Shown piece by piece: positions 37,348 to 40,049 of a DNA stretch of 64,000 bases (within the stretch, counting starts at the first letter, position 1; the number at the start of each line of letters is the position of its first letter). The notes under the pieces were generated by a model, which had not been told where the DNA came from, did no database searches, and worked only from the letters and a program-made list of their open reading frames with translations. The position numbers and the translations under genes were made by a program. The stretch is from Escherichia coli (GTDB lineage Bacteria > Pseudomonadota > Gammaproteobacteria > Enterobacterales > Enterobacteriaceae), in assembly GCF_024700885.2 (NCBI RefSeq), contig NZ_CP117016.1. The stretch is one strand, 5' to 3'.

Positions 37348-37554
37348 ATGATCACCCCAGTTTCACTGATGGATGACCAGATGGTCGACATGGCATTTAT
37401 CACTCAACTGACCGGCCTGACCGATAAGTGGTTTTACAAACTCATCAAGGATGGTGACTTTCCTGCGCCCATCAAAATGGGCCGCAGCTCCCGATGGCTG
37501 AAAAGCGAAGTGGAAGCCTGGCTGCAGGCGCGTATTGCACAGTCCCGTCCGTAA
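37348..37554 (+). CDS. alpA: AlpA-family phage transcriptional regulator / excisionase-like HTH protein
   Basis: 68 aa from the internal ATG with GGAGG RBS; MITPVSLMDDQMVDMAFITQLTGLTDKWFYKLIKDGDFPAPIKMGRSSRW is a typical AlpA fold. Confidence 0.7.
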   Translation: MITPVSLMDDQMVDMAFITQLTGLTDKWFYKLIKDGDFPAPIKMGRSSRWLKSEVEAWLQARIAQSRP

Positions 37555-37634
37555 TTCTTAACCGTTCATCTGCAACAGACGCAGTCTCCGGCCTGCCGGC
37601 GGCGTTCTGCTGCCTGTTATCCCCCGTGAGGAAT

Positions 37635-38243
37635 ATGAAAATGAAACCACAGTATCAGACCCGTTACGAGCTGCTCCACGAAAGCTACCAGAAATGGCTG
37701 ACCGGCTTCACCCGGCACGCCGTATCCTGGGGCGTGTGTCATCCGAATATCTACTACTTCCATAATCTGACGCCCGGGTGGGTGTCATTCAATGGTGAAA
37801 AACCGGAGATTGCCATCGTACCCCAGAGTCTGCACCGGCTGATTTATGGTCCGGACAAACGGACCACGCCGCCCCTGGATGATGATCTGATAGTGAATTT
37901 ATGCACCAGTGAACATCTGCTGGTTCATCATCCGATGCTGGAAGGCATTCTCCTGTCTGAATGTGAACGTCTGAGGCAGCGTTCGCTGGCAAATAAACTG
38001 ATCAGCCTCTTCCGTCAGTTTGGTGGCACGGAGTTGCGCCTCAAACTGGTCTGGCTTTGCTGGCTTGATTTAATGACCGGAAACTGCCTTGACGACTGGA
38101 CGGAGAATCTGAAACGGAAATCAGAAAAAGAGCTGGAGGAATGGATCATCAACCGTCAGAAGCAGAGCGCAGCACTGACGGATCTGATGGATCAGTACGT
38201 GCTCCTGGCATACCGCACAACGGTTGACGATAAGCGCACCTGA
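37635..38243 (+). CDS. Hypothetical protein (202 aa), island-associated, function unknown
   Basis: ORF with GTGAGG RBS immediately downstream of alpA; no recognisable catalytic motif. Confidence 0.5.
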   Translation: MKMKPQYQTRYELLHESYQKWLTGFTRHAVSWGVCHPNIYYFHNLTPGWVSFNGEKPEIAIVPQSLHRLIYGPDKRTTPPLDDDLIVNLCTSEHLLVHHPMLEGILLSECERLRQRSLANKLISLFRQFGGTELRLKLVWLCWLDLMTGNCLDDWTENLKRKSEKELEEWIINRQKQSAALTDLMDQYVLLAYRTTVDDKRT

Positions 38244-38564
38244 TGCCAGTTGTTTCAGGGAAGCTGGTATCCGGGCAGGGTGCCAGGGCTGACTGAACGG
38301 CCTGTCTGCCTGCCGTTTCGCTCTCCGTGCGTTCTGTCACACGCTGCACCTGAACGCCGGACTGCGGGCACGCAGACAGGAAAGTCGCAGGCTGGAACTT
38401 CTGACCGGCGGGTATCAGTTATATGCCTGTTGATTCATCACCACCACGCAGCTCCTGAGCTTTAGTTCATCACCGATATTCATACATCTGAATATCGGTG
38501 ATGAAATCCCCATAATAATCAATCATCTAAGTCTGAAGCATAATGGAGAAAAACTGCTCACCGG

Positions 38565-40049
38565 TTACTTCGCTCTCAGCTTATTGTAGTGATAACCCGA
38601 GGTAAAAATACCAGAGACATCAGACAACTTTAAACTGGCTATCTGGGGAAGCAGAACATACATGGTTTTTCCTTCCGGCACGACAGAAAGCCTGAACTGA
38701 GATTCAAGAATGTTCAGCAATGCGTTCAGTTTTTTCCTGTTTCTGAACCGACCCGGGCCACACTGGAGAATATAATTTTTCCTGACACGGGGTGGGCATT
38801 CTCCGCGGCACTCCTCAATGAGCCAGTCGAACAGCTCCTCGGCGTCCTTCTGCTGCAGTTCAGATTCATCAGGTAACGCAAATAATTTTTTATATTCATC
38901 TGTGTACCACGAACTTATTACGACAGCAGACGTCATGATATCGGCAGAGATTTTCCCTTCACCATAGCTGAAATACTGAAATAACGCTGCAATTCTTGCA
39001 ATGTTTTCTGTTTTTTTTGAAACATGTCCTCGAAACGGGCTTAAGGGTCCGGAAGGGGATAAATCCTGCTCCAGAACATTATAGTGCTCAATAAATATTT
39101 TTTGCGCTTCAGGCGAAAAATGCAGACAATACCGTTCATCCTCACTGGATTTTTCAATACTGCCTCTGGCCAGTTCCATTAATCGTTCATGAAATGCCGT
39201 TAATAATCCTCCCGGAATCACAGCTCCGTTAATAAAGCGTTTCCCCTGCGTGGTTGCAGGTTTACTGATAAGACAACGGGCAAGAAAACCACTGTCCCTG
39301 GCAACAGAACCTTTTCGCTCCATATATCGGTCAAAAAGACCGGGTTGCACCATGAGGGATAACGTCATTCTGGCATTTTCAATCATCTGTTCGGGTTCAT
39401 TCTTTCTGTCCACAGACAATACAGAGCCATCCCACATTTTGTTAATAAAAGGCAACTCAGACAGGGTATATCCATCAAATATAATACCGGCTTCATCTGA
39501 CATAATACCCACTGAACGCCATTTACCACAAAGCTGATTCTTAATTGCCGCAGTCGTGGCATCATTAAAAATGAATTTATACCTCACAGGTTCTTCCGCA
39601 CTGTTTTTCTGAAGTACTTCCAGTTGTCTGAGGGTTTCTGACTCATCCGCGCCTTTGCGGAGTTCTTTATTCAGTTTTGACAACAATGCTTTTTTCTGAG
39701 CCTTTAAAAGCTCTTCCTTGTTTTTCCAGACAGCCAGTTCACTTTTGTATCTGGAATATAACTGCATCTCCTGCTGGTACAGGGGCTTCATTAATAATTT
39801 GTCCACTGCGGTTTTTCGTTCTCCGGACTCGGCAAGCGTCAGGAAAAAAAGAGAGACCGGCCCCCGCAGTGTATTCAGTCTGCAGACATCAATCAGATTC
39901 TGGCAGACAAGTGAAACAGCGCCCAGGGCAGACGCTGCCACAAGCCCAAGGGGAGCCTGCGTAATTTGCTGAGCTTCAATAACGGCATCACGAATGAGTG
40001 GAGGCAGCGAACTCAGGGGAAACTCATCACAAGGCTGACCGAATGACAT
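38565..40049 (-). CDS. DUF3987-domain protein (YfjI-like)
   Basis: 494 aa from MSFGQPCDEF with GAGG RBS; resemblance to CP4-57 YfjI recalled from memory. Confidence 0.6.
   Translation of the reverse strand: MSFGQPCDEFPLSSLPPLIRDAVIEAQQITQAPLGLVAASALGAVSLVCQNLIDVCRLNTLRGPVSLFFLTLAESGERKTAVDKLLMKPLYQQEMQLYSRYKSELAVWKNKEELLKAQKKALLSKLNKELRKGADESETLRQLEVLQKNSAEEPVRYKFIFNDATTAAIKNQLCGKWRSVGIMSDEAGIIFDGYTLSELPFINKMWDGSVLSVDRKNEPEQMIENARMTLSLMVQPGLFDRYMERKGSVARDSGFLARCLISKPATTQGKRFINGAVIPGGLLTAFHERLMELARGSIEKSSEDERYCLHFSPEAQKIFIEHYNVLEQDLSPSGPLSPFRGHVSKKTENIARIAALFQYFSYGEGKISADIMTSAVVISSWYTDEYKKLFALPDESELQQKDAEELFDWLIEECRGECPPRVRKNYILQCGPGRFRNRKKLNALLNILESQFRLSVVPEGKTMYVLLPQIASLKLSDVSGIFTSGYHYNKLRAK

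Follow-up and report, generated by a model that had tools for sequence, protein, structure and literature searches.

The alpA–orf200 (Aec62) pair of a decayed CP4-44 locus in Escherichia coli, a conserved island module at the border of defence-rich cargo

The 64-kb stretch of Escherichia coli DNA analysed here (referred to as the window) contains a gene for an AlpA-family regulator, alpA, followed on the same strand by an open reading frame (ORF) of 200 codons, here called orf200, and then by a convergent gene for a DUF3987 protein. ORF listing, reading of the sequence and Pfam searches find all three where a preliminary description of this DNA had placed them. The window covers the asnW/U/V–cobUST–CP4-44 locus of E. 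coli, already known as a decayed island remnant riddled with insertion sequences (IS), and the region matches many E. coli chromosomes at 100%. Gene context was read from the Prokaryotic Genome Annotation Pipeline (PGAP) annotation of the identical region in strain B771, in which the core side runs yeeN, asnW, yeeO, asnU, cbl, nac, asnV, ldtA, cobTSU. A run of IS3, IS4, ISL3 and IS110 remnants comes next, and then two zinc-ribbon genes, an inovirus-Gp2-family gene, an Hha-family gene, alpA, a hypothetical gene (orf200) and a YfjI-family gene. The distal part comprises a YeeP-type GTPase gene and Ag43, continues to YeeS, CbeA/CbtA and YeeW, and ends with a pduV remnant and tmaR.

The most striking property of this region is the linkage of its two central genes. 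Contexts were compared in Yersinia, Klebsiella, Pantoea and Salmonella, in 31 loci of GTDB species representatives, and in E. coli Nissle, SMS-3-5 and ST131. The co-occurrence with alpA that the preliminary description proposed to check proved strict: in every locus with DNA upstream of orf200 (about 38 loci from some 20 enterobacterial genera), the same AlpA subtype is encoded directly upstream on the same strand, and the spacer between the two genes measures 85–103 nt in 34 of the 38. Among 5426 complete E. coli genomes, the pair was detected in 3336 (61%); the median copy number was two and the maximum seven. A single phage record among 50,697 contains orf200, as do nine “plasmid” records, six of which are 0.8–4.9 Mb in size; the gene is not phage- or plasmid-borne and is essentially absent from true plasmids. 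Judging from sequence searches, the family is confined to islands of Enterobacterales.

The gene itself is genuine. Its GAGGA Shine-Dalgarno (SD) sequence (37628–37632) stands 8 nt ahead of the second ATG, at 37641, which is also the start used by PGAP (WP_000804452.1) and by all homologues in other genera; orf200 is therefore taken to begin at 37641, most likely, rather than at the ATG at 37635, so that the good ribosome-binding site of the preliminary description is real while its 202-aa product probably has 200 residues. A word-indexed search returned 204 homologues, all of about 200 aa, all from Enterobacterales, and 55–65% identical between genera. The ratio of nonsynonymous to synonymous substitution rates (dN/dS) is 0.08–0.28, similar to that of alpA (0.07–0.27), and the frame is intact across about 20 genera at 36–100% identity. 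Because of these homologues and dN/dS values, orf200 is more than a chance ORF and is a gene under purifying selection, conserved in related islands, the condition that the preliminary description had set. A profile search of 1.84 billion cluster representatives gave only 125 hits for the family, mostly fragments, with no informative domain fusion among them and no sign of wider spread beyond these clusters.

The product has defied annotation, as was first supposed: it matches nothing in Pfam, NCBIfam, PHROGs or PADLOC (0 defence families in PADLOC-DB v2 at E≤0.01), and remote-homology and fold searches, including the PDB, found no sequence or structure likeness to any described family or fold beyond its own. 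An identical protein (100%) is deposited in UniProt as Aec62 (Q5K5T0) in a 249-aa form, which is the length of the long ORF 37494–38243; the entry consists of a name with no attached function. Other family members are called “malate transporter” or “secretoglobin family”, names that no search of the family backs, and a literature search on Aec62 and its WP accessions found nothing relevant. The AlphaFold model (predicted local distance difference test score, pLDDT, 74.8; predicted template modelling score, pTM, 0.74) combines a helical bundle with a beta-hairpin and a long helix at the N-terminus. The positions conserved even at 36% identity are in the main hydrophobic or structural, chiefly Trp and Leu with some charged residues; no catalytic-looking motif is retained in the 36%-identical member, and no enzyme-like or NTPase motifs were seen, so the protein looks like a non-enzymatic helical one. 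Three candidate identities were rejected. A zinc site built on the conserved C35/H36, HHPMLEG, C110 and C142 is lost in the 36–46% identical members, in which HHPMLEG becomes THFNLGG or THAGMEG and SEC becomes SEL. A DNA mimic or strongly basic DNA-binder finds no support in a family isoelectric point (pI) of 5.9–7.6, and a fragment or relative of YfjI is rejected by BLASTP (E=0.99).

The alpA product is recognised by both AlpA-family profiles, Phage_AlpA PF05930 (E=1e-8, residues 12–59) and HTH_17 (E=9e-7), and by the PHROGs family “excisionase and transcriptional regulator” (E=8e-10). K-12 AlpA gives no BLASTP match to it at 1e-3, and by sequence the window protein is classed as a subtype distinct from K-12 AlpA. 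Upstream of the gene, the aligned leader contains a T-run, TTTTTTACG, at 37251–59, TATG at 37275–78, and three CCGG boxes: box 1 (GCCGGTG, 37278–84), box 2 (CACCGGC, 37311–17) and box 3 (CCGGAGGA, 37332–39). Across genera, the hairpin between boxes 1 and 2 is maintained by compensatory changes. Box 3 is the alpA SD sequence, is identical in sequence to box 1 and forms an alternative partner for box 2, which in some clades is predicted to pair with the SD instead of box 1. The predicted function of such a leader resembles that of an anti-SD/anti-anti-SD switch.

A second structured element occupies the spacer between alpA and orf200. Of 25 unique spacers, 22 share a two-tier fold with a free energy (dG) of −14 to −23 kcal/mol, and the arms change in concert by clade (GCAGCAGA/TCTGCTGC; CAGCCAG/CTGGCTG; AGCCAA/TTGGCT; GCAGCAAA/TTTGCTGC); in Pantoea a different, perfect 11-bp hairpin is found at the same place. 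The outer stem is suggested by per-sequence folds and by these visible matching arm changes; RNAalifold on MAFFT spacer alignments recovers only the 4-bp inner stem, because the register of the 5′ arm shifts from clade to clade. The Serratia and Klebsiella inner stem, taken together with GGTTTTCT, conforms to the pattern of an intrinsic terminator. The window hairpin is degraded, with one A:C mismatch, a lost T-run and a z-score of −0.43. The spacer motif TTCTGCTGCCTGT does not recur elsewhere in the window beyond chance, and Rfam at E≤1 over 34500–42600 reported only IS102/IsrC RNA, with no match in the alpA leader or the spacer. The two hairpins suggest control by attenuation; alternatively, the spacer structure could be a palindromic operator acting at the DNA level. 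Coordinates of these and the neighbouring features are collected in Table 1.

Table 1. Features of the alpA–orf200 region (window coordinates).
Feature	Position	Strand	Description
Paralogous zinc-ribbon gene pair	32923-33333, 34497-34889	-	Split by an IS110-family pseudogene (~33519-34487)
Inovirus Gp2-family (YfjJ/YagK-like) gene	35056-35625	-	PGAP name; 36% identity to K-12 YfjJ
Hha/YmoA-family gene	36440-36589	-	Between Gp2-like gene and alpA (E. coli arrangement)
Conserved alpA promoter/leader	37251-37347	+	Alignment of 33 loci; blocks kept across genera
alpA	37348-37554	+	68 aa, AlpA/Vis-family winged helix-turn-helix regulator
Two-tier hairpin in alpA–orf200 spacer	37572-37613	+	Outer stem GCAACAGA/TCTGCTGC, inner stem CCGG/CCGG
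orf200 (“Aec62” family)	37641-38243	+	200 aa, mostly helical; alternative start 37635 gives 202 aa
Variable slot between alpA–orf200 pair and yeeP arm	38260-41193		YfjI cassette and ~1.1 kb of AT-rich non-coding DNA
YfjI-family DUF3987 gene	38565-40049	-	494 aa, convergent with orf200
YeeP-like GTPase gene	41279-42151	+	First gene of conserved distal arm (Ag43, RadC/YeeS, CbeA/CbtA)

Conservation stops abruptly after the pair. The related fec-carrying island of Nissle 1917 is 92% identical to the window over 36440–38259, and homology to it ends at 38259, 16 nt past the orf200 stop, and resumes at 41194, just ahead of yeeP. The intervening slot (GC 0.38 at 40001–41000) holds a 305-aa gene in Nissle and IS150 with gene fragments in SMS-3-5; ST131 has a divergent version of the YfjI cassette there, and the place of orf200 next to it is taken by a 190-aa protein that has likewise diverged. 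The DUF3987 protein of the window is a full-length member of its family (PF13148, E=8e-96, model positions 1–363 of 364), is 53% identical to K-12 YfjI and matches PHROG 2373, “DNA helicase” (E=1.5e-82); searches showed no convincing primase domain (a PHROG primase only at E=0.006). The YfjI cassette occurs in 1826 E. coli genomes, and no YfjI homologue was found within 10 kb of orf200 in any genus other than E. coli's. YfjI is therefore not an obligatory partner of the pair: outside E. coli the DUF3987 gene does not belong to the conserved module, and its place in the window is the variable slot. This slot also contains, at 38466–38505 and 60 nt beyond the stop codon of the yfjI-family gene, a 17-bp inverted repeat that is perfect (TTCATCACCGATATTCA/TGAATATCGGTGATGAA), has a 6-nt loop and lacks a T-run on either side.

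The order of genes around the pair differs between E. coli and its relatives. The usual layout elsewhere is CbtA … YeeP(−), a gene of about 305 aa (−), alpA(+), orf200(+), often Gp2-like and zinc-ribbon genes (+), cargo, and an integrase gene (−). In E. coli (loci L010, L011 and L044, against L002–L039 for all other genera), the alpA–orf200 cassette has the opposite orientation with respect to its two flanks, with the Gp2-like and zinc-ribbon genes on one side and yeeP on the other, and alpA is preceded by an inserted Hha-family gene. Relatives of the Gp2-like gene in other loci match Pfam REP_ORF2-G2P. The two zinc-ribbon genes, separated in the window, are adjacent in Nissle and SMS-3-5, and they accompany the Gp2-like gene in other genera as well. 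Distant orf200 paralogues (33–36% identity) were seen in L016 (12962–13624) and L030 (16683–17111), adjoining Gp2-like and zinc-ribbon genes with no adjacent alpA; their positions hint at a functional tie of orf200 to the Gp2-like protein.

The DNA 0–10 kb past the alpA–orf200(–Gp2) block is a hotspot of defence systems across Enterobacterales (L012–L039). Dnd/Dpt and BREX occur in the cargo directly beyond the pair, and of the largest downstream ORFs sampled, 15 of 19 match PADLOC (Gabija, Zac, type I restriction-modification, PDC-M27, Dnd, Ppl, PD-Lambda-4, SngA); the largest ORF is co-oriented with the pair in 15 of the 19 loci. In L025, L038, L039 and L041 an integrase gene lies beyond this cargo, at the far end, and in Morganella (L041) it is found 7 kb beyond orf200, adjoining tRNA-SeC.

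The window copy lacks this end. No P4-type integrase was found in the 64 kb by tblastn with K-12 IntA (E≤1e-3), the annotation of the identical B771 region lists none either, and no attachment (att) site adjoins the module, in agreement with the absence first noted. The nearest tRNA genes are three for tRNA-Asn at 19346–23653, and the core genes ldtA–cobTSU and several IS elements lie between them and the module. Since the combination of integrase, tRNA or transfer-messenger RNA (tmRNA) gene and att site is missing here, though the four relatives just named possess an integrase, the window copy is a remnant and not a complete member of the CP4/SRL-PAI type (SRL, Shigella resistance locus; PAI, pathogenicity island). 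Its remaining parts fit that type, as the preliminary description held in taking it for a P4-integrase-type island that had lost mobilisation. An AlpA/Vis-family regulator, a Gp2-like (YfjJ/YagK) gene and zinc-ribbon genes are all present, as is the distal arm of YeeP-type GTPase, Ag43, antirestriction, RadC/YeeS and CbeA/CbtA genes in the PGAP annotation of the identical region, with tblastn matches in the window to YeeP at 41240–42148 and to CbtA at 51863–52054.

Several further observations were made along the window. A full-length Rfam IS102 RNA (RF00124, 253 bits) is located at 42255–42458, between the yeeP-like GTPase gene and Ag43. Ag43/flu itself appears as two ORFs (42323–44827 and 44845–45597), suggesting a frameshift or stop in the autotransporter, and its B771 counterpart carries an IS3 insertion. 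At the start of the window, ahead of the tRNA-Asn genes, positions 1–13000 form a block of about 60% GC with very large ORFs (e.g., 288–7406, 2372 aa) that ends abruptly near 13000 and looks like a separate horizontally acquired island.

Comparison with described elements helps to place the module. In CP4-57 of K-12 (intA, yfjH, alpA, yfjI, yfjJ, abpBA), as in the window, a gene of the AlpA family stands at the head of a short block of genes on one strand, which encodes DUF3987 and Gp2-like proteins and borders defence cargo (AbpAB; abpAB/rnlAB). From the K-12 map, we take its far arm to hold a YeeP-type GTPase and a CbtA-type toxin, again as in the window island. CP4-57 differs in its AlpA subtype, in having yfjI and not orf200 after alpA, and in an integrase only 1.2 kb away, whereas the window has no integrase and carries yfjI on the strand opposite to alpA; in CP4-57 the place between alpA and the Gp2-like gene, which in the present islands belongs to orf200, is filled by yfjI. 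A closer counterpart is the Shigella flexneri SRL PAI, with orf39 (YfjJ), orf40 (Hha/YmoA), orf41 (Vis/AlpA-like), orf42 (“no similarity”), orf46 (YeeP) and orf47 (Ag43), and with int (orf1) and, next to it, a separate recombination directionality factor gene, rox (orf3), at the end opposite orf39–42 (PMC6980539). It shares with the window the order YfjJ/Gp2-like, Hha/YmoA, Vis/AlpA-like, orf42, YeeP and Ag43 and is intact with int and rox, while the window copy has neither. As int and rox of the SRL PAI are far from orf41, alpA of this subtype is normally distant from the integrase. The preliminary expectation that alpA sits beside an integrase therefore fails for this subtype, given also the 7-kb separation in L041 and the lack of an annotated integrase within 20 kb upstream of the pair in large E. 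coli PAIs.

Two other groups of elements are less closely related. P4-like satellites and Gram-negative phage-inducible chromosomal islands (PICIs), with the order int–alpA–primase/replicase, have in common with the window island an AlpA-family regulator and a DUF3987-containing putative replication protein, together with the P4-type integrases of relatives. Compared with satellites the islands are of much greater size, orf200 matches no PHROG family and is essentially absent from phage records, and no psu/delta/sid, capsid or packaging gene is annotated in the 43 kb around the module; the compact satellite set of integrase, alpA, primase-replicase and capsid-redirection or packaging genes within about 10–20 kb is not found. 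The Pseudomonas tmRNA-site islands I23, I44 and I55 carry intY at one end and, at the opposite one, alpA together with a Gp2-like gene; RadC is present, and defence cargo fills the interior. These islands need intY in order to excise and are transduced by a jumbo phage (PMC12595487). They share their architecture with the window family and have an experimentally shown life style; they differ in host family and integration site, and no orf200 homologue was shown in them.

Taken together, we consider it probable (roughly 0.6) that the region is a conserved backbone “hinge” module of a CP4/SRL-PAI-type island and that orf200 is an AlpA-linked regulatory or mobility accessory. That orf200 belongs to the island backbone and not to its cargo is very likely in itself; any one specific molecular role for it would be doubtful. 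In this arrangement, alpA and orf200 form a fixed two-gene unit on one strand, apparently read from the single conserved promoter/leader and presumably one transcription unit under leader and hairpin control. The unit divides the conserved yeeP–Ag43–RadC–CbtA arm from a variable arm, which in intact relatives runs via cargo, often of defence genes, to a P4-like tyrosine integrase beside a tRNA gene. CP4-57 AlpA, P4 Vis and SRL Rox are the analogues for an AlpA that acts as a DNA-binding switch of island expression and excision, and by analogy the AlpA of this module may be such a switch, or else an antiterminator. The 200-aa protein could then be a non-enzymatic helical accessory of the AlpA switch, or of the Gp2-like/YfjI replication-mobilisation genes. 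With int and att gone, the unit in the window is unable to drive excision in cis.

Several points weigh against this proposal. Any role given to the 200-aa protein is one that we infer. The terminator-like hairpin between alpA and orf200 in several genera may speak against co-transcription, and the inversion in E. coli implies that the cassette works in either orientation. A Gp2-like gene is near alpA and orf200 in only about 60% of loci, and, with YfjI absent from the loci outside E. coli, synteny requires no strict role in a replication module. AlphaFold on a linker-fused AlpA–orf200 construct with a 24-row paired alignment gave a pTM of 0.60, a value compatible with a complex or with none; in this run pLDDT in the N-terminal half of orf200 rose by about 20 points, but the alignment differed from that of the first run. 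Finally, the siting next to a defence hotspot may leave room for a defence-related or cargo-regulating role of orf200.

A more detailed version of the hinge proposal treats the alpA–hairpin–Aec62 unit as a complete regulatory switch, in which the leader would gate AlpA translation through the competing pairings of box 1 with box 2 and of box 2 with the SD, AlpA would permit read-through of the spacer terminator, and Aec62 would be an AlpA partner or sensor through which a signal, for instance DNA damage or infection by a phage, would bring about excision or replication of the island and switch on the adjacent co-oriented defence hotspot; as a whole this is improbable. A partly overlapping alternative is an antitermination cassette, in which AlpA, once loaded onto the polymerase at the conserved promoter, would enable transcription to continue past the spacer terminator into orf200 and the co-oriented cargo downstream, orf200 being a modulator of AlpA or the first effector. 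Antitermination is the function of AlpA in Pseudomonas aeruginosa: the protein is loaded at a promoter element and causes an intrinsic terminator further downstream to be bypassed (PMC7969949, PMC9371919). Its partner protein YgfB, the precedent for such a modulator, counteracts it (PMC9998450). The terminator pattern of the Serratia and Klebsiella spacers, the prevailing co-orientation of the largest downstream ORF and the conserved promoter/leader all agree with it. On the other hand, the inner stem is just 5 bp long, the window copy has lost its T-run and no terminator is called in it, the E. coli cassette points into the yeeP arm and not into cargo, and the likeness of this AlpA subtype to PA0907 rests on the Pfam domain. 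This alternative, too, must be regarded as unlikely.

The suggestion of the preliminary description, that orf200 is retained cargo with a role of its own in defence or superinfection exclusion, draws on a real feature of the islands, as the gene abuts a region with known defence systems in most relatives and, like many new defence genes, has no known fold or family. Its behaviour points elsewhere: orf200 is the most invariant neighbour of alpA whatever the cargo, staying the same while the adjacent defence genes change completely, and the variable, defence-rich DNA begins just beyond it. It is tied to one AlpA subtype at a fixed spacing, occurs in several copies per genome, is essentially missing from phages and true plasmids, which are common vehicles of defence genes, and yields neither a PADLOC match nor enzyme-like or NTPase motifs. 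The earlier idea thus had the neighbourhood right and the gene wrong, and a defence function for orf200 has a slim chance. A similarly slim one is left to an establishment or anti-defence protein that, like leading-region genes, would act on entry into a new host. The same islands do carry antirestriction (ArdB/KlcA-like), RadC/JAB and DUF932 genes, a typical content of those regions of transferable elements that enter a new host early; orf200 lies outside that arm, paired with the regulator alpA, and neither its near-neutral pI, which argues against a DNA mimic, nor its absence from plasmids suits such a role. That orf200 is a decaying relic with no present function, as the heavily degraded state of the island might suggest (IS3, IS110 and ISL3 pseudogenes, a split Ag43, a lost integrase), is contradicted by its dN/dS and its frame kept intact across the genera, and is hardly credible.

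The locus as such is largely ordinary, a known CP4-44 remnant whose module had previously been listed as SRL PAI ORFs and deposited as “Aec62”. What is added is a clean definition of the Aec62 family, which has no Pfam entry or fold and is linked to one AlpA subtype, and the recognition that the alpA–orf200 pair marks the exact border of a cargo hotspot for defence and virulence genes across about 20 genera. The family is a practical landmark for locating island cargo and a cheap target for studying how islands are switched on. If the switch model holds, one of the most widespread island families of Enterobacterales would be governed by a so far uncharacterised switch of which this pair is the core.

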